DNA from: Escherichia phage 215Ecol030PP
Length of the DNA stretch: 64,000 nucleotides
Direction: 5' to 3' (one strand)
Sequence record: PP328843.1
A program made the translations under genes and the position numbers. Under the pieces are notes generated by a model, which saw only the letters and a program-made list of their open reading frames with translations, was not told the DNA's origin and did no database searches. Shown piece after piece: positions 5,362-63,989 of the stretch (its first letter is position 1; each line of letters begins with the position of its first letter).

Positions 5362-5449
5362 GTTATCGAGTTGGTGCCATTATATACATCGTTTTCTGAT
5401 TGTGGTTTGTGTGCTTTCAAAATGAAGAAAGGGGCCGAAGCCCCTGAGA

Positions 5450-6868
5450 TTATGGATAGGTATAGATGATACCAGTTTCTAAAGCAGTTTTATGAATGAT
5501 GTATCCATTACGCGATTCTTGGACATCAACTTCTGGATAATCTTTCATCATCTTCTGAAGAGTGTAACGATGCAGGTAGTATTTACTATCTGGATCTTCA
5601 GTTTTCCAATCTTTACCTTCTTCAGTCATTTTTTGGATTTCATCCATAACCCACCAACCGCACCAGATGTAAGCTGAGCTACGATGTGGAAGAGGATGAA
5701 CATAAGGTAATTCACCTTCTGGTTCCGGAGCAGCTTTATCAGTTACCTGAACTTGACCTTCTGCTGTAATAGTTTTGCTATCATAATCAGCAGCAGTAAC
5801 AGTTGCAGTAACTTCAATAGTTTGACTTCCAACAGATGATGTATCAACGGTGTATACATTAGTTGACCCTTCTACAGGAGAAGAATCTTTCTTCCATGAA
5901 TACGTAATTTGCGCTTCTTCCGGAGCATCCGTAACGTTAGCAGTAAATGTAGCCGAAGCATCTTGCTGAACATTAATAGAAGGAGGAGTCAATGTAACCT
6001 GTGGATTCATTGTCTTCTTATTAACTGTCAATGATACTTCATTAGAAGTAACTTCCTTTTCATTATAATTTTCTGCAGTTACTTGGGCTACGCATTTAAT
6101 TCTTTTTACTCCACTTGTAGTTGGAGTATAGTTAAATGTAGAGTTAGTTTCTCCACCAACTTGTGAATCATCTACATACCACTGATACGTAGCAGACGCT
6201 CCGTCAGGTTGAGAAGCTAATGCAGCAGTAAATTGAACCGGGGTTCCAATTACTCCAGCAGCAGGACTAGCAGGAGTTACTGCCAAGGTAGTTGTCTGTG
6301 TCTTTTTATTAACTGTCAATGATACTTCATTGGAAGTAACGCTCAGTGCATCATAATCTGTCGCAGTTACTTGAGCTACACACTTAATTTTTTTAACTCC
6401 GCTTGTAGTAGGAGTATAATTGAATGTAGCAGAAGTTGCTTCGCTCACAGGAGAACCGTCAACGTACCATTGATACGTAGCAGATGCGCCCGATGGCTGC
6501 GAAGCTAAAGCAGCAGTAAATTCAACAGCTGTTCCGATTACTCCTTCTGGAGGACTATTAGGAGTTACAGCTAAGGTAGTTGTCTGTGTCTTATTTTGAA
6601 CTGTGATAGTTGTACTAATTTCAGCTGTTTCAGCTTCAGCTTCTGGAACTGTATTTGTTGCAACCACTTTAATAGTCTTTTGACCAGCAGGTCCTTTTAA
6701 TACATAATTAAAGGTTGCTTCAGCTCCATCCTGTGGAACATTATCTACACTCCAAGCATAGGTAATAGTTCCACCTTCAGTTTGACCACTGGGTGCAGCA
6801 GTAAACTGCTTGGTTTCATCAATAACCCCCGTTGGTGTTTTAGGAGTTATATCAACTGTAAAAGTCAT
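5450..6868 (-). CDS. hoc: Highly immunogenic outer capsid protein Hoc, with an extra Ig-like domain
   Basis: 472 aa; tandem Ig-like repeats and conserved C-terminal capsid-binding region; T4 Hoc is 376 aa, so about 96 aa (one domain) longer. Confidence 0.85.
   Translation of the reverse strand: MTFTVDITPKTPTGVIDETKQFTAAPSGQTEGGTITYAWSVDNVPQDGAEATFNYVLKGPAGQKTIKVVATNTVPEAEAETAEISTTITVQNKTQTTTLAVTPNSPPEGVIGTAVEFTAALASQPSGASATYQWYVDGSPVSEATSATFNYTPTTSGVKKIKCVAQVTATDYDALSVTSNEVSLTVNKKTQTTTLAVTPASPAAGVIGTPVQFTAALASQPDGASATYQWYVDDSQVGGETNSTFNYTPTTSGVKRIKCVAQVTAENYNEKEVTSNEVSLTVNKKTMNPQVTLTPPSINVQQDASATFTANVTDAPEEAQITYSWKKDSSPVEGSTNVYTVDTSSVGSQTIEVTATVTAADYDSKTITAEGQVQVTDKAAPEPEGELPYVHPLPHRSSAYIWCGWWVMDEIQKMTEEGKDWKTEDPDSKYYLHRYTLQKMMKDYPEVDVQESRNGYIIHKTALETGIIYTYP
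6013..6588 (-). repeat. Imperfect tandem duplication (2 x about 288 bp) encoding two roughly 80 percent identical Ig-like domains of Hoc
   Basis: Protein segments QTTTLAVTP...SLTVNKKT occur twice consecutively; approximate boundaries. Confidence 0.7.
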
Positions 6869-17963: not shown

Positions 17964-17994
17964 TTTGTGTTCCTCATGTTATGTCAGTAAGACT

Positions 17995-18024
17995 ACTATA
18001 ACACAACACGAGGGACTTGTAAAC
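17995..18024 (-). promoter_or_regulatory. T4-type early promoter (GTTTAC, 18-nt spacer, TATAGT)
   Basis: Minus-strand -35 GTTTAC and -10 TATAGT; part of a 53-bp repeat shared with the alc promoter. Confidence 0.55.
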
Positions 18025-20443: not shown

Positions 20444-20463
20444 ATCCTCTCTATTGTTTATTC

Positions 20464-20471
20464 TATTTATA
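20464..20471 (-). promoter_or_regulatory. T4-type late promoter (TATAAATA) upstream of alt
   Basis: Minus-strand TATAAATA about 20 nt upstream of the alt start. Confidence 0.5.
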
Positions 20472-20492
20472 AAATTAAAGGCCCGAAGGCCT

Positions 20493-20681
20493 TTAATAAT
20501 CTAGTGGTAAGAGAGTACGGTATATTTCAAACTTTGGACCTTTTTCATAGGCATCAAATGTTTCTGTGAATTTATTATAAGCATATGCATCTACAAATTC
20601 GAGAATGACTTGTGATACAGAAGTAGAAACATCTCCACCTTCTTTTTGAGCAATGACAATTGTTTCTAAGTAAGCTTTCAT
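20493..20681 (-). CDS. Hypothetical 62-aa protein between gene 30 and alt
   Basis: ORF overlapping the gene 30 stop (ATGA) and ending in a terminator-like hairpin. Confidence 0.5.
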   Translation of the reverse strand: MKAYLETIVIAQKEGGDVSTSVSQVILEFVDAYAYNKFTETFDAYEKGPKFEIYRTLLPLDY

Positions 20682-24381: not shown

Positions 24382-24422
24382 AGTATTTTCCTCAGTAAGG
24401 GGCCGAAGCCCCTCATTTATTT

Positions 24423-31502: not shown

Positions 31503-31530
31503 AAAGTCCTCATGTTATGTCAGTAAGACT

Positions 31531-31560
31531 ACTATAACACAACACGAAGGACTTGTAAAC
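31531..31560 (-). promoter_or_regulatory. T4-type early promoter (GTTTAC, 18 nt, TATAGT) for alc
   Basis: Minus-strand hexamers; 53-bp near-identical copy of the promoter at 17972-18024. Confidence 0.55.
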
Positions 31561-38134: not shown

Positions 38135-38396
38135 CATTATGTTCAGATAAGGTCGTTAATCTTATCCCGGAATTATATCCAGCTGCATGTCACCATGCAG
38201 AGCAGACTATATCTCCAACTTGTTAAAGCAAGTTGTCTATCGTTTCGAGTCACTTGACCCTACTCCCTAAAGGGATAGTCGTTAGGCATTTAGGTAGAAC
38301 CAAAGTCCTACAATTTAGCACGGGATTGTCTACTAGAGAGGTTCCCCGTTTAGATAGATTACAAGTATAAGTCACCTTATACTCAGGCCTCAATTA
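38135..38396 (-). mobile_element. Group I self-splicing intron in td, ORF-less (262 nt)
   Basis: The intron begins UAAUUGAGGCCUGAGUAUAAGGUGACUUAUAC... and ends ...CUGAACAUAAUG, which I recognise as the T4 td intron core; no I-TevI ORF is present. Confidence 0.8.
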
Positions 38397-39086
38397 ACCC
38401 AAGAAAACATCTACTGAGCGTTGATACCACTGCAAATCCAAATAGCCATTACGCACATTAAACTGATAGAACATATGACAAGGCGGTAATGCCATATATT
38501 TAAGTTCAGCTGGATTCCATGCAGAAACAATTTGACGCCTATCATTTGGCAATTTTTTAATACGATCAATAACTTCTACAATTTGGTCTACACCGCCAAA
38601 ATCACGCCATTGTTTTCCATAAATTGGACCAAGTTCACCGCTATGGTATCCTAAATCTTTTGCTTGATTTTCGTAATTTTCATCCCAGACTGTTTTGCCT
38701 TGAATTAATGAATCATGCTGAATTTGGTCTACACCGCCAAAATCACGCCATTGTTTTCCATAAATTGGACCAAGTTCACCGCTATGGTATCCTAAATCTT
38801 TTGCTTGATTTTCGTAATTTTCATCCCAGACTGTTTTGCCTTGAATTAATGAATCATGCTGAATTAATCGTAAATCATTTACGTTAGTACTTCCTGATAA
38901 GAACCAAAGTAGCTCAGCAATGCAAGCTTTCCAAGCGAGCTTCTTAGTTGTTACCGCAGGAAAACCTTTAGTTAAATCCCAGCGTAATTTAGTACCGAAC
39001 AAAGCAATTGTTCCTGTGCCTGTTCGGTCATCGGTTTCATAGCCATTTTCAAAAATGTCTTTAATTAAATCTTGGTATTGTTTCAT
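38397..39086 (-). CDS. td: Thymidylate synthase, exon 1 (contains an in-frame 47-codon tandem duplication)
   Basis: MKQYQDLIKDIFENGYETDDRTGTGT... with catalytic ALPPCHMF; the segment QHDSLIQ...GGVDQI occurs twice in a row. Confidence 0.88.
38580..38861. repeat. Perfect direct tandem duplication, 2 x 141 bp, inside td exon 1
   Basis: Positions 38580-38720 and 38721-38861 are identical by eye; junction microhomology ATT. Confidence 0.9.
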
Positions 39087-39498: not shown

Positions 39499-40328
<830 letters not shown>

Positions 40329-40338
40329 ATTATTTTCC

Positions 40339-40638
40339 TTAAACAGACTTTTTCACAATTTTCCAATCAGCTTTAAACTGATCGACGTCAGAATGGTAAA
40401 TCCAGAATCCTGCGCTTTCTCCGTCTTCATAAAGAGGACATCCATCACATTCATCTTCCCATCCCATGTCACGTAAAAGATGTTCAGCTTTTTCAACAAG
40501 TTCAGAATCTTTACCGATGATATTAAAATACCATTTACCTCTAACTTCTGAATCTTTGATGCTCTGGCGTTGTAATCTCATTTTATTCTCCTTAGTTGAT
40601 AAGGCTATAGTATCATTACCATAGCCCGTTGTAAACAA
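40339..40638 (-). CDS. Hypothetical protein (frd.2 position)
   Basis: 99-aa ORF with AAGGAGAATAAA ATG context. Confidence 0.55.
   Translation of the reverse strand: MFTTGYGNDTIALSTKENKMRLQRQSIKDSEVRGKWYFNIIGKDSELVEKAEHLLRDMGWEDECDGCPLYEDGESAGFWIYHSDVDQFKADWKIVKKSV
40607..40636 (-). promoter_or_regulatory. T4-type early promoter (GTTTAC, 18 nt, TACTAT)
   Basis: Minus-strand hexamers upstream of ORF 40339-40638. Confidence 0.5.
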
Positions 40639-40932
40639 TTATTTTTGAATTTTATCGAGCCACTTACCAAGCTTAATCATTTCTTTAGTAGCCTTTTCCA
40701 TACTTCTGAACTTAACCAATAGAGGATAGGTATCGACACCCATAACTAAACTGGTTACAAGACTGTGTTCACCCACAAGCCATAACGAATACGTTTGAAT
40801 ATCGAGCCCGTAATTTCTGTCTTTATGGACCCGTACACCCATCACTTCAAATTTCTCACTAGCTTTTTCTACCGCATCCAGGAAATCATCTTTAGTCATA
40901 TTAGGCCTTAAAAGTTTTTCGCAAAAGTTCAA
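40639..40932 (-). CDS. Hypothetical protein
   Basis: 97-aa ORF. Confidence 0.5.
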   Translation of the reverse strand: MNFCEKLLRPNMTKDDFLDAVEKASEKFEVMGVRVHKDRNYGLDIQTYSLWLVGEHSLVTSLVMGVDTYPLLVKFRSMEKATKEMIKLGKWLDKIQK

Positions 40933-41302
40933 TGATTTCGTCTACATTGTTTTCGTCAACAATGCAGTGAATTTTTGTTACGCCAGAAACCTTGTCTTTG
41001 ACTTCATCCTCTTCAGAAGTTGGTTCTTTATATTCGCGGAAACAATAAAACTCTTCTTCACTAAGTTCAAAATAATCATCACCCATACCATCATCATTAT
41101 AGATTTCACCGTTAGCACAAATGATTTCGGTTACATAATCAAAGCCATCTAAACTTGATATTGATTTAACTTCAAACCAACCACCATTTTCTTGAATGAT
41201 GCCGACCATATTAGCATTTGATGAACTAATATCAATGAAAGATTTAATACGGTGTGGATTTAACTCGTATTTTTTGCCGATTTCCATTTTGATTTTCCTC
41301 AT
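40901..41302 (-). CDS. Hypothetical protein
   Basis: 133-aa ORF. Confidence 0.5.
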   Translation of the reverse strand: MRKIKMEIGKKYELNPHRIKSFIDISSSNANMVGIIQENGGWFEVKSISSLDGFDYVTEIICANGEIYNDDGMGDDYFELSEEEFYCFREYKEPTSEEDEVKDKVSGVTKIHCIVDENNVDEIIELLRKTFKA

Positions 41303-41332
41303 TTTAATAGGGGCTTAATAGCCCCTTGATAA

Positions 41333-41623
41333 TTATTGTTCAATCAGTCCCATGTAAAATTCTGCGTCTTCAGAATCCATGCCATCACAATATTCATTAG
41401 CCATAAAGCGGGTGAGGTCTTCAAGAGGACCTTCAATAACGATTTGAATACTCCAAAACTTAGAATCTTGTACGCTTGTGATACTAAGTTCAGGATAACG
41501 ATTACGAATAATCTCTTCAATATATTCAAAATCAACGATGTCAATATCAACTTTAGCCATATTATTTTCCTCTTTAATCATCAGCAGTATTGCCGATAGT
41601 TGTATAGTACCATGGAAGGACAA
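41333..41623 (-). CDS. Hypothetical protein
   Basis: 96-aa acidic ORF with AGAGGAAAATAAT ATG context. Confidence 0.5.
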
Positions 41624-41633
41624 GGATGTAAAC
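41604..41633 (-). promoter_or_regulatory. T4-type early promoter (GTTTAC, 18 nt, TACTAT) with upstream A/T-rich element
   Basis: Minus-strand hexamers; member of a repeated promoter cassette family (see findings). Confidence 0.5.
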
Positions 41634-41664
41634 CGTTTTGTGAAAAAATTTTTGAAATAAAAAA

Positions 41665-41683
41665 GGGGACCTCTAGGGTCCCC
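41665..41683 (-). terminator. Intrinsic terminator downstream of gene 32
   Basis: GGGGACC-CTAGA-GGTCCCC hairpin followed on the minus strand by TTTTTTATTTC. Confidence 0.6.
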
Positions 41684-41705
41684 AATTAATTAGTAATATA
41701 ATCTA

Positions 41706-42611
41706 TTAAAGGTCATTCAAAAGGTCATCCAGGTCCGTGTCATCAGCACTAGATGAACTGCCAGAGCTTGAGCTCATAAAATCATCTTCAGTTTTTGTTT
41801 TGAAGTCATCAACATTGAATGCATCCAAATCATCAGCAACTTTATCAGCTTTCTTAGCGGCAGTTGCAGCGGCACCACCCATAGCAGCAGTTCCCATAAC
41901 TTGACTGAACTTAGTGCTCAGTTCTTCAAACGATTTGAATTTATCTTTAGAAGTCATTTCAGAAAGGTCAACCATTTGTTCGAACAGTTCTTTCTGGAAA
42001 GATTCATCGTCAATGTTTGGAATCGCAGATTGATTCAGGAATTTAGATTCGTCGTAGTTACTAAATCCAGAAACTTGTTTAACTTTCAGTACAAAGTTAG
42101 CACCTTCCCACGGACAAGTTACATCAACCGGAGTTTCACCCATTTCAACATCAACCGCAATCATTGCATTGATTTTATCCCAGATTTTCTTACCGAAGCG
42201 GTATTTAAATACTTTACCTTCGTTTTCTGGAGCAGCTGGATCTTTTACTACAAGAATGTTAGCCCAGTAAGAAGTTTTACGTTTAACAAGACTGTACTCT
42301 TTATTGTCAGTGTTGTACAGATCATTTTTACTGATGTACTGACATACTGGGCAAGAATCGTAATCACCGTGGGTAGATGAACATGTTTCAATATACCATT
42401 TACCATTTTTCTTGAAACCGTGATTTACAAGAATTGCGAATGGTGCTTGTTCATCATTTTTAGACGGAAGAAAACGAATTACTGCTTGACCGTTACCCGC
42501 ATTGTCGAGTTTCAGTTTCCACTCGCCTTTATCTTCAGAAGAAAAACCTTTATTGCCATTCAGTTTAGCCATTTGTGCAGCGAGTTCAGCAGTAGATTTA
42601 CGTTTAAACAT
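41706..42611 (-). CDS. 32: gp32 single-stranded DNA-binding protein
   Basis: 301 aa; sequence recognised as T4 gp32, including the acidic Ser-rich C-terminus. Confidence 0.95.
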
Positions 42612-42690
42612 TTTTATTTCCTTTTTAATTTAATTAACAGTTGGTGCTATGACGATGTATGACCTCATAGCTGGTCAGTGAGATAATTAT
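42612..42690 (-). promoter_or_regulatory. Gene 32 translational operator (pseudoknot plus unstructured A/U-rich leader)
   Basis: Leader mRNA ...GCUAUGAGGUCAUACAUCGUCAUAGCACCAACUGUUAAUUAAAUUAAAAAGGAAAUAAAAAUG matches the known gp32 autoregulatory site architecture. Confidence 0.6.
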
Positions 42691-42694
42691 AATC

Positions 42695-42702
42695 TATTTA
42701 TA
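42695..42702 (-). promoter_or_regulatory. T4-type late promoter (TATAAATA) upstream of gene 32
   Basis: Minus-strand TATAAATA upstream of the gene 32 leader. Confidence 0.5.
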
Positions 42703-42710
42703 ATAAGCAA

Positions 42711-43364
42711 TTAATACTTACAAGATTTCACAGTTTCAATGAAAACATTTTTAGCTTTCTGTGAATCAATATTTAAAATTTTTCTATAAGCCTTTAACTT
42801 TATAGAATAATTATTCCAGACTAAATTATCAGTCTGTTCATCATGTTTATCAATTATATTTAAAAATGAATCAAGCAAGATAAACGTCTCAAACGAAATT
42901 ATGTTCGATTGCAGAAGTTTAAAAATATAACTCGACTGAACTTTTGGATTATACTCAAAGATTTCTTTAAAAGCAGAAACTTCAACTTTTTTACTAAAAT
43001 AATAGATATTCCTAATATCTTCTTCAAACTTAAATTTAATTTGCTTTAAGCGTCCGATATATTCACGATAAAACACAAGTGCATCAGCGTCAGAGATGTC
43101 ACCAATCCAAGCATCTTGGTTAGCAACCAAATTACTTATAAAGATTAAAGCAAGTTCCTTTAATTTATATTTTTCTGATAACTTCTGGAAAAAATACTTA
43201 TCCCTTCGCTTTTGATAAGCGGCATCAGACACCCGCATGCACCAATTATACTTAATTACATCATACTTTCCATTCATATGTTGTTTTATCATTAAGTATA
43301 ATTTATAAACTGATTTACCATCAATGTATCTTTCACCACCAGCAGGCATGCGGAGTTTAATCAT
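42711..43364 (-). CDS. 59: gp59 helicase loader
   Basis: 217 aa; recognised as T4 gp59; no intervening seg gene between 59 and 32. Confidence 0.9.
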   Translation of the reverse strand: MIKLRMPAGGERYIDGKSVYKLYLMIKQHMNGKYDVIKYNWCMRVSDAAYQKRRDKYFFQKLSEKYKLKELALIFISNLVANQDAWIGDISDADALVFYREYIGRLKQIKFKFEEDIRNIYYFSKKVEVSAFKEIFEYNPKVQSSYIFKLLQSNIISFETFILLDSFLNIIDKHDEQTDNLVWNNYSIKLKAYRKILNIDSQKAKNVFIETVKSCKY

Positions 43365-57887: not shown

Positions 57888-57924
57888 TTTAATCTCCGTT
57901 TCAGTTCATTTATTTGATAGGTCT

Positions 57925-57953
57925 ATAGTATCATGTTTAAAGCAGAAGTAAAC
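57925..57953 (-). promoter_or_regulatory. T4-type early promoter (GTTTAC, 17 nt, TACTAT) for motA
   Basis: Minus-strand consensus hexamers about 35 nt upstream of motA. Confidence 0.55.
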
Positions 57954-57992: not shown

Positions 57993-58220
57993 TTACTTAA
58001 TGTTCAGATTACGAACTTCGATTTCGTCTTCATGGGCAAAATCAAACTGTTTGAATTCTGTGTCACCTTTAAATTTAAAAATCATTGTGAAGAAAGTCAG
58101 AACACCAGGTTTTTCTTCACGAACTCCACAGATATCATATTCAATACCATCTACAACCAGTTTGTTAGCAGTCAGAGCATTTTTAGCTTTAACGATTTCG
58201 TTTTCGATTTTAAATTTCAT
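57993..58220 (-). CDS. Hypothetical protein (motA.1 position)
   Basis: 75-aa ORF. Confidence 0.5.
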   Translation of the reverse strand: MKFKIENEIVKAKNALTANKLVVDGIEYDICGVREEKPGVLTFFTMIFKFKGDTEFKQFDFAHEDEIEVRNLNIK

Positions 58221-58269
58221 TTTTTGTATCTCCGGGTTGTTTGTTTCAGTTCATTTATTTGATAGTTGT

Positions 58270-58299
58270 ATAGTACCACAGTATGCTTTGGTTGTAAAC
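58270..58299 (-). promoter_or_regulatory. T4-type early promoter (GTTTAC, 18 nt, TACTAT)
   Basis: Minus-strand hexamers; member of the repeated promoter cassette family. Confidence 0.5.
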
Positions 58300-58330
58300 C
58301 GTTTTGTGAAAAAATTTTTGAAATAAAAAA

Positions 58331-58350
58331 GGGAGAGCCGAGGCTCTCCC
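58331..58350 (-). terminator. Intrinsic terminator downstream of the gene 52 operon
   Basis: GGGAGAGCC-GA-GGCTCTCCC hairpin followed on the minus strand by TTTTTTATTTC. Confidence 0.55.
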
Positions 58351-58355
58351 TAAAA

Positions 58356-58505
58356 TTACTGCATGACTGTGATAACTGTCATGATAACACGTTGAATTCC
58401 GAACGCAAGAAGACCTCCTGCTACGGCAGGAACAACACCTAAACCCGCCAGTAAAATGCCACCAGATACTAATGCAGCGCTTGTGATACCAATGAATGGA
58501 CTCAT
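58356..58505 (-). CDS. Small hydrophobic protein (49 aa)
   Basis: Manually translated ORF MSPFIGITSAALVSGGILLAGLGVV... overlapping the gene 52 stop (ATGA); below the ORF-track cutoff. Confidence 0.35.
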   Translation of the reverse strand: MSPFIGITSAALVSGGILLAGLGVVPAVAGGLLAFGIQRVIMTVITVMQ

Positions 58506-61625: not shown

Positions 61626-61889
61626 TCATAGTTCAATCTCAATGATTTCCAGGTGTTTTTGTTTTATTGCCTTTTTAACACAATCATGGACTAAATATGA
61701 CCATGAATCATTATATTCTCCATTAACTAATCGTTGGAGATCTTCACGTGATGATAAGTAAGGTTGATCTGATTCCCATTTTGATAAAAATACTGCAGTA
61801 AAAATATCTCCTTCACCTGTCGTTGAAGTCGTAAATGCAATAAATTCACCGGTAATTTTATGTTTAGCGTAATAAAATTTAAATTTCAT
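61626..61889 (-). CDS. Hypothetical protein
   Basis: 87-aa ORF with GGAGGAGTAAAA ATG context. Confidence 0.55.
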   Translation of the reverse strand: MKFKFYYAKHKITGEFIAFTTSTTGEGDIFTAVFLSKWESDQPYLSSREDLQRLVNGEYNDSWSYLVHDCVKKAIKQKHLEIIEIEL

Positions 61890-61916
61890 TTTTACTCCTC
61901 CGTAGCTGATAGTTGT

Positions 61917-61946
61917 ATAGTACCACAGTCCTTGTGGTATGTAAAC
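61917..61946 (-). promoter_or_regulatory. T4-type early promoter (GTTTAC, 18 nt, TACTAT)
   Basis: Minus-strand hexamers upstream of ORF 61626-61889. Confidence 0.5.
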
Positions 61947-61965
61947 TGTTTTGTGAAAAAATTTT

Positions 61966-62523
61966 TTAAATGGAAAGATACCATCCGTTGTAGTTGCTTT
62001 TTCTTACAACCTTACGAAGGTCTTCTCTGTCACCGATGAACTTCGGAGTGTACTGGATGACACCTGGATGAATTTCTTTAGTGTTGAATATAATTATACA
62101 GTCAGCGACTTGATGATTTAGAATGGGCCCTAGATTTATTCCAGAACCATATGGATACTCTCCGCTGCATCCGGTTGTTACCGAAATCCAACGTGAGTCA
62201 GTTTGATGTGTCTTAACTTCTACACGAAGCCCACAGTATTTTGGATGCGCCAAAACATCCCATGCATATGTGTACGGATCATCGACATCTTCTTGACCTT
62301 TGTTAACATACCCGCTCAGCCAATCTGCTACAAAAAATTCTGCGTACACAGCGATACGGCATCTTTCGATAACTTCTGCCTTATCTTGATTTGGGTTTTG
62401 TTTTAAAGAGTATCTTGCTGTATCAGCAATTTTGGCCTTCATTTCACTAGTCAAGTCACTGTTCGATAGGGTAAATGTCGGAATCTGAAATAGTCTCTGT
62501 AACCCAGGATTCGTTTTCTGCAT
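61966..62523 (-). CDS. denB: Putative endonuclease IV (DenB)
   Basis: 185 aa; length and position upstream of ndd and downstream of rIIB match T4 denB; assignment by synteny. Confidence 0.6.
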   Translation of the reverse strand: MQKTNPGLQRLFQIPTFTLSNSDLTSEMKAKIADTARYSLKQNPNQDKAEVIERCRIAVYAEFFVADWLSGYVNKGQEDVDDPYTYAWDVLAHPKYCGLRVEVKTHQTDSRWISVTTGCSGEYPYGSGINLGPILNHQVADCIIIFNTKEIHPGVIQYTPKFIGDREDLRKVVRKSNYNGWYLSI

Positions 62524-62785
62524 TTAGACTTTCCTTTTTACCACTGAGATAAGCGTTATATACTTTAAGAGTGCCGTAATAAATTCGGTCATTTTCATCT
62601 AAAGACTCGCGGTCAAGTTCATCGAGCTCCTTTTTATCCATGACTATAACATCATTACAGTAAAGAAACCCAAGTTTTTCGTGACCAAACTCAAATTTAT
62701 TACAGTACACAATATTAGCGTGATGATTTCCGTGCAGTTTAATCTCTTTTATGTCAGAATCACCGATATTCATACAATAAATCAT
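62456..62785 (-). CDS. Hypothetical protein (denB.1 position)
   Basis: 109-aa ORF. Confidence 0.5.
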   Translation of the reverse strand: MIYCMNIGDSDIKEIKLHGNHHANIVYCNKFEFGHEKLGFLYCNDVIVMDKKELDELDRESLDENDRIYYGTLKVYNAYLSGKKESLNAENESWVTETISDSDIYPIEQ

Positions 62786-62823
62786 AATTTTTCCTTAAAA
62801 CAAAAGGGCCGAAGCCCTTTATT

Positions 62824-63018
62824 TTACTTGAATTGTGCAATTCTTTTCTCTAGACATTCAGCATAAGATTTCATTGAGATAAACTGCGAAAGTAGCAGTT
62901 CTTGCTCAACTGCGCTAACTGTTAGAAACTTTGCGCTTTCTAAAAATTTGCTCAGTGCATTAATTTTGAGCATTAATTGATCGTATTCTTCTTTTACTCG
63001 TGCTTGATAACCTAACAT
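62824..63018 (-). CDS. Hypothetical protein
   Basis: 64-aa ORF flanked by GGGCCGAAGCCC hairpins. Confidence 0.45.
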   Translation of the reverse strand: MLGYQARVKEEYDQLMLKINALSKFLESAKFLTVSAVEQELLLSQFISMKSYAECLEKRIAQFK

Positions 63019-63050
63019 AATTTTCCTTAATGTGATAAGGGCCGAAGCCC

Positions 63051-63989
63051 TTATTTAAATTGTTCAGTAACGTCTTCAACTACTTCGTATTGGCAGGTAC
63101 GCATTTTAGCATCGTTGTAATCAATCGGAATTGATACTACATCACGCGGATGTACTTTAACTTTTACAACTCGACTGGTTGAACTGCCAAAGTGACGAAT
63201 ATAAGATTTAGAACACACATGCAGACCACGAGAACAAGTTTGTGTATCATCGTCATTCACACGAGTACGTGGCATTTTAACTACTTTACCAGGACTGTTA
63301 TCAAAGGTGTTTGAGTGACAGTCAAAGTAGTTGTCACGAACTACTTTCCAAGCATAGAAGTAACCATCTTCGGTGATTTCAATATCGTTTGCTACCAAGA
63401 AATCAAAGAGTCGAGATACCGCTTTTTGGCTTGGGTTTTCCAACAGATTTTCCAAGAACGGAAAATAAAATTCAAAGTTTTCACCTTTTTCCATCGAATC
63501 GAGAATACGATCAACTAAACCAGACCGCAATTCAATATTTTGATAGAACAAGCTTCCACCTTCAATTCGAACATCACCGGAAATATATTTTTCAACAGCG
63601 CGACGAACGTTAATTTTTTGCGCAGCTTCTTCCAGCTTATCCGCTACAAGCAGATTAAGAATTTCCTGGAAGTTTGAATGAGTATTAGGAGTTGCGTTAT
63701 AAGTTACACCGTCAACAGTAATTGAAATGAATTTTTTAGATGCATTCCAAATAATGTCAGATTTAGCAACTGGAGCAATAACTGCATCGCTATTAACTTT
63801 AACTGTAATATCACCGCTAATAGTAACTTTAGAGCGTTTAGCTTCTTCAGCATTTTTCAAAACACGACGAATTGTGTCAACCGATACACCTTGCCAATCA
63901 GCCAATTCCTGTTGGGTGTAATTACCACTTGAATACAATTTAACAATTTCAGCTTGTTCGTTTTTGGTCAGGCATTTAATATTGTACAT
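63051..63989 (-). CDS. rIIB: rIIB membrane-associated lysis-inhibition protein
   Basis: 312 aa; sequence recognised as T4 rIIB. Confidence 0.93.
   Translation of the reverse strand: MYNIKCLTKNEQAEIVKLYSSGNYTQQELADWQGVSVDTIRRVLKNAEEAKRSKVTISGDITVKVNSDAVIAPVAKSDIIWNASKKFISITVDGVTYNATPNTHSNFQEILNLLVADKLEEAAQKINVRRAVEKYISGDVRIEGGSLFYQNIELRSGLVDRILDSMEKGENFEFYFPFLENLLENPSQKAVSRLFDFLVANDIEITEDGYFYAWKVVRDNYFDCHSNTFDNSPGKVVKMPRTRVNDDDTQTCSRGLHVCSKSYIRHFGSSTSRVVKVKVHPRDVVSIPIDYNDAKMRTCQYEVVEDVTEQFK

Follow-up and report, generated by a model that had tools for sequence, protein, structure and literature searches.

Predicted early-promoter cassettes, two with terminator hairpins, repeated at gene boundaries of a T4-like Escherichia phage

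Three copies of one cassette on the minus strand

The window analyzed here, a stretch of 64,000 nucleotides (64 kb) from Escherichia phage 215Ecol030PP (record PP328843.1), is a segment of a Tequatrovirus (T4-like) genome with 98% identity to many T-even phages of Escherichia, Shigella, and Yersinia. Its gene order is that of T4, the collinear part of the T4 record being about its final 64 kb. Because the early genes of the window sit on the minus strand, the cassettes described below are read as reverse complements.

Cassette 1 has gene 32 (41706–42611) as its upstream neighbor and, downstream, a homologue of frd.3 as named in the T4 annotation (41333–41560, minus strand; 75 aa, phrog_1764). 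Cassette 2 (58261–58324, minus strand) is found 3′ of motA.1 (58356–58505) and 5′ of an ORF of 75 aa to which no function is assigned (57993–58220, minus strand; phrog_10955). Cassette 3 (61908–61971, minus strand) overlaps the last codons of denB, whose stop codon occupies 61966–61968, and precedes an 87-aa ORF, likewise of unassigned function (61626–61889, minus strand; phrog_2390). Each of the three downstream ORFs is presumed to be driven by the cassette in front of it.

The order of elements is the same in all copies: an UP-like block, GTTTACA (−35), a 17-nt spacer, TGG-TACTAT (extended −10), and the start region ACAACTATC, followed by a 5′UTR with a GGAG-type Shine-Dalgarno and then ATG. 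The UP-like block reads ATTT(C/A)AAAAATTTTTTCACAAAAC(G/A) in all three. In cassette 1, this A/T block is ATTTCAAAAATTTTTTCACAAAACG (41634–41658, minus strand), identical to that of cassette 2 and matching that of cassette 3 at 23/25 positions. The core promoter (41595–41633, minus strand) consists of GTTTACA (41627–41633), a 14-nt variable spacer of the type that we call allele A (41613–41626), TGG plus TACTAT (41604–41612), and ACAACTATC (41595–41603), and we infer a +1 near 41597. The corresponding parts of cassette 2 are the UP block at 58300–58324, GTTTACA at 58293–58299, spacer allele B at 58279–58292, and TGG-TACTAT-ACAACTATC at 58261–58278; those of cassette 3 are at 61947–61971, 61940–61946, 61926–61939 (allele C), and 61908–61925, respectively.

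The initial annotation had grouped these three loci by common motifs, and this was borne out, both motifs being present exactly, three times each, in the window. The upstream motif, GTAAACYGTTTTGTGAAAAAATTTTTKAAAT, has exactly three matches (41628–41658, 58294–58324, and 61941–61971), and shuffled sequences gave an expectation of 0. The downstream motif, GATAGTTGTATAGTACCA, occurs exactly at 41595, 58261, and 61908 only, with 0.06 occurrences expected by chance; a single relative with three mismatches lies at 57916. These expectations rule out a chance repeat. A repeat search returned the three loci as one 98-nt family, in which the other two copies are 79 and 60% identical to copy 1. Copies 1 and 2 share an identical run of 41 nt (41627–41667 and 58293–58333), made up of the −35 hexamer and 35 nt upstream of it: one G, the 25-nt UP block, six T residues, and the first GGG of the hairpin. 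The earlier claim that these copies are identical over about 39 nt upstream of the −35 was essentially right but slightly too high, since the run reaches 35 nt upstream of that element.

Predicted promoter and terminator elements

A strict scan of the minus strand for GTTTAC-N16–18-TAnnnT over the whole window gave 13 sites, among which the three cassettes stand apart from the other 10. The UP blocks of the cassettes match one another at 23–25 of 25 positions, against 6–13 of 25 for the other sites compared with the family. Likewise, the block comprising TGn, −10, and start region is the same at 18 of 18 positions in the three cassettes, against 8–15 of 18 for the others. The three cassettes are therefore more than a generic early-promoter consensus. 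Their 14-nt spacers agree at only 3–5 of 14 positions, which is the level of chance, and the conservation appears to be confined to functional elements, namely those that RNA polymerase would contact.

Scored against an E. coli UP consensus, reportedly that of Estrem et al. 1998, the UP blocks match at 11–12 of the 14 specified positions (11/14 for cassette 1), a score that only 0.3% of the 22-mers of this AT-rich window attain. They resemble in this respect the E. coli UP elements of the rrnB P1 type, which are A/T-rich blocks at about −59 to −38; the promoters of the window differ in being those of a phage, with binding by the α C-terminal domain (α-CTD) as a prediction only. All three copies combine TGG and TACTAT with a spacer of 17 nt (within 17 ± 1) and have A at −11 and T at −7, and each stands upstream of, and is oriented like, an early gene that has a Shine-Dalgarno. 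In contrast, a generic scan for σ70 hexamers was uninformative as evidence: the cassettes score 9/12, and matches of this quality are no commoner than in shuffles (19 found and 19.1 expected). The promoter call rests for this reason on the extended conservation and on orthology. The elements agree with the published architecture of T4 early promoters, which are of the UP/−35/TGn/−10 type and carry extra consensus information (Hinton 2010, PMC2988021), with GTTTAC at −36 to −31, TTTAC[A/T] being the −35 hexamer, and an A-rich, UP-like region (Nolan 2006, PMC1524935). The T4 proteins Alt and ModA ADP-ribosylate Arg-265 of α, which changes the use of UP elements (PMC2988021).

Two of the cassettes directly follow predicted intrinsic terminators. 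The one ending gene 32 (41659–41683, minus strand) is formed by GGGGACC-CTAGA-GGTCCCC (41665–41683) and TTTTTT (41659–41664). Its hairpin has 7 bp, of which six are GC pairs, and a 5-nt loop followed by T6; the RNA folds with −14.3 kcal/mol, and this is the sole terminator-like site within 40000–43000. The one ending motA.1 (58325–58350, minus strand) is formed by GGGAGAGCC-TCGG-GGCTCTCCC (58331–58350) and TTTTTT (58325–58330), with 9 bp (six GC pairs), a 4-nt loop, and T6. At −19.5 kcal/mol (z = −4.7), this hairpin is the top terminator-like site of the scanned region. The depositors of related genomes annotated a terminator at both hairpins (among them D5505 and SP1 at the motA.1 site) and, at the gene 32/frd.3 site, both a “terminator” and a “predicted early promoter.” In five of the six T4-like genomes compared by Nolan 2006 (PMC1524935), a terminator was also predicted downstream of gene 32.

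The features of a Rho-independent terminator (GC-rich stem, short loop, and U-run) were found together at copies 1 and 2 only. At copy 3, folding found no terminator, just a weak structure of −8.4 kcal/mol inside denB with no U-run. The UP block of this copy extends over the denB stop codon, which is why the copy has no terminator, and “terminator plus promoter” is therefore unfit as a description of every member. Thus, of what had been proposed as a terminator-promoter family of three, the placement of the first two loci directly after GC hairpins was confirmed and the assignment as early promoters was supported, but the third copy has no terminator, and the family has more than three members, as described below.

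Several other elements of the window have related layouts. Around 25246 on the minus strand, an early-type promoter, GTTTACA-N17-TAGTAT, directly follows a GC hairpin and T-run, ctccttcgggagtccttttttatttt; the order of terminator and promoter is that of cassettes 1 and 2, but with another UP block. At 17971–18024 and 31507–31560, a second early-promoter unit is duplicated; it is 98% identical over 54 nt that span GTTTAC, spacer, −10, and the 5′UTR to the Shine-Dalgarno, and represents another cassette sub-family of like kind. Finally, a family of repeated GC hairpins (5425–5452, 20457–20493, 24393–24420, 62783–62826, and 63016–63052) reads GGGGCC-GAAG-GCCCC or GGGCC-GAAG-CCC on the plus strand and resembles a terminator with a UUCG loop on the minus strand; those near denB.1 are placed directly before the ribosome-binding site of the next gene. 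A search of Rfam at gathering thresholds found no structured RNA at the three cassette loci, the sole match in the window being the td group I intron.

T4 counterparts, spacer alleles, and gene-content junctions

Each cassette has an orthologous site in T4 with which it can be aligned base for base: cassette 1 the one upstream of frd.3 (GTTTAC at 146875), cassette 2 the one immediately upstream of motA (163673), and cassette 3 the one upstream of ndd.6 (167086). The positions relative to the genes are the same, and the UP block, GTTTACA, TGG-TACTAT, and ACAACTATC are identical or nearly so. The spacer at the frd.3 site is allele A in this phage and allele D in T4, and the UP block has one substitution, C in this phage and T in T4, in copies 1 and 2 both. 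In addition, the motA.1-proximal cassette of this phage precedes an extra ORF, that of 75 aa, and motA has its own second promoter. Full copies in T4 also precede e.8 (70696), nrdC.10 (55384), and imm.1 (27080), giving the family at least six copies in that genome, and relatives with the −10 and start block alone lie upstream of nrdC.8 and mobD.5. With a 77-nt cassette as the query, a blastn search of an annotated phage collection gave 2667 matching places, which are spread over 539 phage records at about five per genome and belong almost entirely to T-even-type phages of enterobacteria; a pattern scan of IMG/VR for more copies returned four loci.

To compare the sites among phages, we used a small sample of about 14 genomes. 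Four discrete alleles of the 14-nt spacer were distinguished: A (TCCTTGTCCTTCCA), B (ACCAAAGCATACTG), C (TACCACAAGGACTG), and D (AGCATAAAGCTTTA). All four were met at the frd.3 site: A in the window, FT, D5505, fPS-2, PYps11T, and others; D in T4, W143, slur08, and ECO07P1; C in Sso113 and HY01; and B in Pu-Krd-SF4. Each allele also occurs at other sites (motA, post-denB, e.8, and nrdC.10). Downstream of motA.1, most genomes have allele B and Sso113 has D; at the post-denB site, most have C and FT has B; in T4, the e.8 site carries A and the nrdC.10 site carries D. The genomes examined thus contradict a strict site specificity of the spacer alleles. The flanking hairpin and 5′UTR stay locus-specific while the spacer alleles vary. 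This combination, the same alleles at non-orthologous sites within locus-specific flanks, indicates that short patches bounded by the invariant blocks moved between sites. Judged from these alignments, the sharing of alleles shows that exchange happened, but it gives neither the pathway nor the frequency.

The genes next to the cassettes vary as well. Three different ORFs are joined to the post-denB cassette, namely ndd.6 in T4, the 87-aa ORF in the window, and an ORF like RB32ORF266c in Sso113 and SP1, and a generic leader, AACTGATACGGATTTGGAGAATAAAATG, often accompanies this cassette. Reassorting spacer alleles, together with the same cassette joined to different ORFs, point to ectopic recombination. 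FT, Sso113, and D5505 have the 75-aa ORF, and T4, PYps11T, HY01, SP1, and W143 lack it; the left junction of this indel is no more than 2 nt from ACAACTATC. W143 carries the motA cassette twice in tandem, with a period of 63 nt (L017, 17728–17791), the start-region motif CAACTA being joined at the junction to the T-run of the UP block. This tandem cassette is direct evidence of slippage or unequal exchange within the cassette. At the UP position that varies between C and T, copies 1 and 2 agree with each other in 8 of 10 genomes, which is only suggestive of concerted evolution because it is confounded by phylogeny.

The second early-type promoter, in front of motA (57898–57953, minus strand), is related to the cassettes and consists of GTTTACT (57947–57953), a 16-nt spacer, and TGATACTATAGACCTATC. 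Its −10 and 5′UTR (57898–57933) form a 36-nt direct repeat, 92% identical, of 58243–58278. Because motA has this second, related promoter, the 75-aa module is flanked by 36-nt direct repeats, which would permit a mini-circle. Simple excision of the ORF between these repeats to give the T4 arrangement was not supported: the 5′UTRs differ, so recombination between the repeats would not lead directly to what T4 has.

The leaders themselves have a further feature. The cassette 5′UTRs (58221–58260 and 61890–61907, and the T4 leaders) carry GGAG Shine-Dalgarno motifs, and the generic leader GGAGAATAAAA fits the consensus of the RegB endoribonuclease, GGAGRAYARAA (PMC3014915). Early mRNAs from the cassettes may therefore be RegB targets.

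Interpretation, known systems, and other repeats in the window

Each locus is very probably the boundary of a T4-type early transcription unit whose cassette doubles as a recombination homology of the kind described for promoter-early stem-loops (PeSLs). At copies 1 and 2, the Rho-independent terminator (GC hairpin and U6) would stop transcripts of gene 32 or motA.1, and its T-run passes straight into the A/T-rich, UP-like block that the α-CTDs of RNA polymerase are predicted to contact. GTTTACA would be bound by region 4 of σ70 and TGn and TACTAT by σ regions 3.0/2.4, with the spacer sequence presumably arbitrary. The unmodified host σ70 holoenzyme could then re-initiate immediately after infection and transcribe the next small early gene with its own Shine-Dalgarno. 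Because the copies have two long invariant blocks in common, they could also serve as dispersed homology patches on which the recombination system of the phage acts: exchange of short patches among copies would carry spacer alleles from site to site, and recombination at the cassettes would insert, delete, or replace the small ORFs downstream.

The identity of the blocks might instead reflect convergence or purifying selection on an optimal sequence for RNA polymerase binding, with no exchange and no role in gene shuffling. The confinement of conservation to polymerase-contact elements, the unrelated spacers within one genome, and the extra consensus information known in T4 early promoters (PMC2988021) all agree with this explanation. 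It does not account for identical 14-nt spacers, which have no known sequence requirement, at non-orthologous sites of different genomes, nor for 5′UTR segments such as AACTGATACGGATTTGGAGAATAAAATG that are common to unrelated ORFs; moreover, the other 10 GTTTAC promoters of the window do not approach these blocks. We therefore regard convergence as very improbable. The invariant blocks TTTTTTCACAAAAC and TGGTACTATACAACTATC, start region included, might also be bound by some protein besides RNA polymerase, from the phage or the host. Candidates are a factor for Alt-dependent stimulation, for the shut-off of early promoters, or for targeted recombination. Conservation of the blocks exceeds what recognition of −35 and −10 requires, extending to 9 nt around +1, and sets these promoters apart as a sub-family of early promoters. 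According to the review by Hinton, the mechanism by which Alt stimulates particular early promoters is unknown, and early shut-off persists without AsiA and is unaffected by deletion of modA (PMC2988021); Arbiol et al. speculate on a specific DNA-binding protein acting on PeSLs (PMC2839356). However, no added factor is needed for the invariance, which is explained by recombinational homogenization together with selection for strong promoters, and we saw no dyad symmetry or other operator-like feature in the blocks, which makes such a protein unlikely. The more specific proposal that ACAACTATC and the TTTTTTCACAAAAC part of UP are kept identical at six or more sites for reasons other than promoter strength, as the recognition site of such a factor, the spacer alleles being reassorted by a dedicated short-patch exchange, is in our opinion equally doubtful.

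The dispersal of the copies, one of which borders an indel flanked by direct repeats, and the wealth of seg and mob homing endonucleases in T4-type genomes would fit yet another origin, as ends or remnants of an autonomous mobile element (MITE-like or a homing-endonuclease cassette) rather than regulatory DNA. But the cassettes lack terminal inverted repeats and are not linked to a gene for a transposase or endonuclease, the downstream ORFs encode small proteins of no assigned function, and all copies are in the orientation of early transcription at a fixed distance upstream of a Shine-Dalgarno and ATG. A mobile-element origin is thus extremely improbable, and we retain the reading of the loci as transcription unit boundaries that double as recombination homology.

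A regulatory unit in which a terminator precedes a very strong early promoter, and at which recombination can exchange small genes, is already known, in the form of T4 early promoters and PeSL cassettes. The initial annotation had seen in these loci a modular unit that insulates and restarts transcription between early genes; this is supported in substance and corresponds to the published PeSL concept (PMC2839356, PMC4122927), but the recombinational side of the cassettes had been missed. The PeSL is defined with reporter assays and mini-circles (Arbiol 2010, PMC2839356), promoter and terminator activities and mini-circle formation being demonstrated experimentally for RB49/phi1, and a consensus of TTTACW-N17-TAYWAT is given for the PST/T4 pair together with a PeSL-linked exchange of ndd.4/.5 in the ndd region (Comeau 2014, PMC4122927). 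PeSLs, which also have an adjacent stem-loop with a terminator-like counterpart at copies 1 and 2, share with the cassettes the repeated composite of AT-rich region, early promoter, Shine-Dalgarno, and ATG, and the position next to small variable ORFs and indels between close relatives. The promoter of the window fits the PST/T4 consensus, and the ndd-denB region is among the published examples of exchange (PMC4122927); nt-1/KVP40 is the other pair treated by Comeau et al. 2014 (PMC4122927). There are also differences. RB49/phi1 PeSLs have a near-perfect TTGACA/TATAAT promoter, with the stem-loop often inside it (PMC2839356), and the window has GTTTACA/TACTAT with the stem-loop upstream. Copy 3 has no stem-loop, unlike the PeSL as defined in that account, and mini-circles are reported there for RB49/phi1 only (PMC2839356). 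Lambdoid morons are similar in being small accessory genes with their own promoter and terminator. As discussed by Arbiol et al. (PMC2839356), their arrival is ascribed to illegitimate recombination, and the regulatory sequences of morons do not act as conserved linkers, whereas the regulatory cassette of the window is itself the repeated homology.

The sections of PMC2839356 and PMC4122927 available to us make no mention of the reassortment of spacer alleles between sites, which is a modest addition that extends the PeSL model and does not change it. The pattern of alleles by site provides a clean, small-scale illustration of short-patch exchange among dispersed T-even promoter cassettes. There is no new biology in the cassettes otherwise. 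What is gained is annotation of the window, with three predicted early starts, two predicted terminators, and the boundaries of small accessory-gene modules (the 75-aa ORF between motA.1 and motA and the replaceable ORF after denB). In marking junctions at which accessory ORFs are swapped, the cassettes are relevant to phage adaptation and to the choice of insertion sites in engineering.

Exon 1 of td (thymidylate synthase; 38580–38861) contains a perfect, in-frame tandem duplication of 141 bp (47 codons). A 481-nt query across it maps to just 340 nt in each of the eight best-matching records listed, so these eight have a single copy, and the duplication is either real and recent or an assembly artifact. 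The td group I intron (38183–38406, minus strand; Rfam RF00028, 65.5 bits) is short, and the ORF list of the window holds no intron-encoded endonuclease in it, an ORF of a kind that is present in the td intron of T4; in the T4 record, td appears only as a joined CDS in two pieces. Finally, a 288-nt tandem repeat at 6011–6604 (2.1 copies, 79% identity) has a period of 96 codons, which suggests a repeated protein domain.
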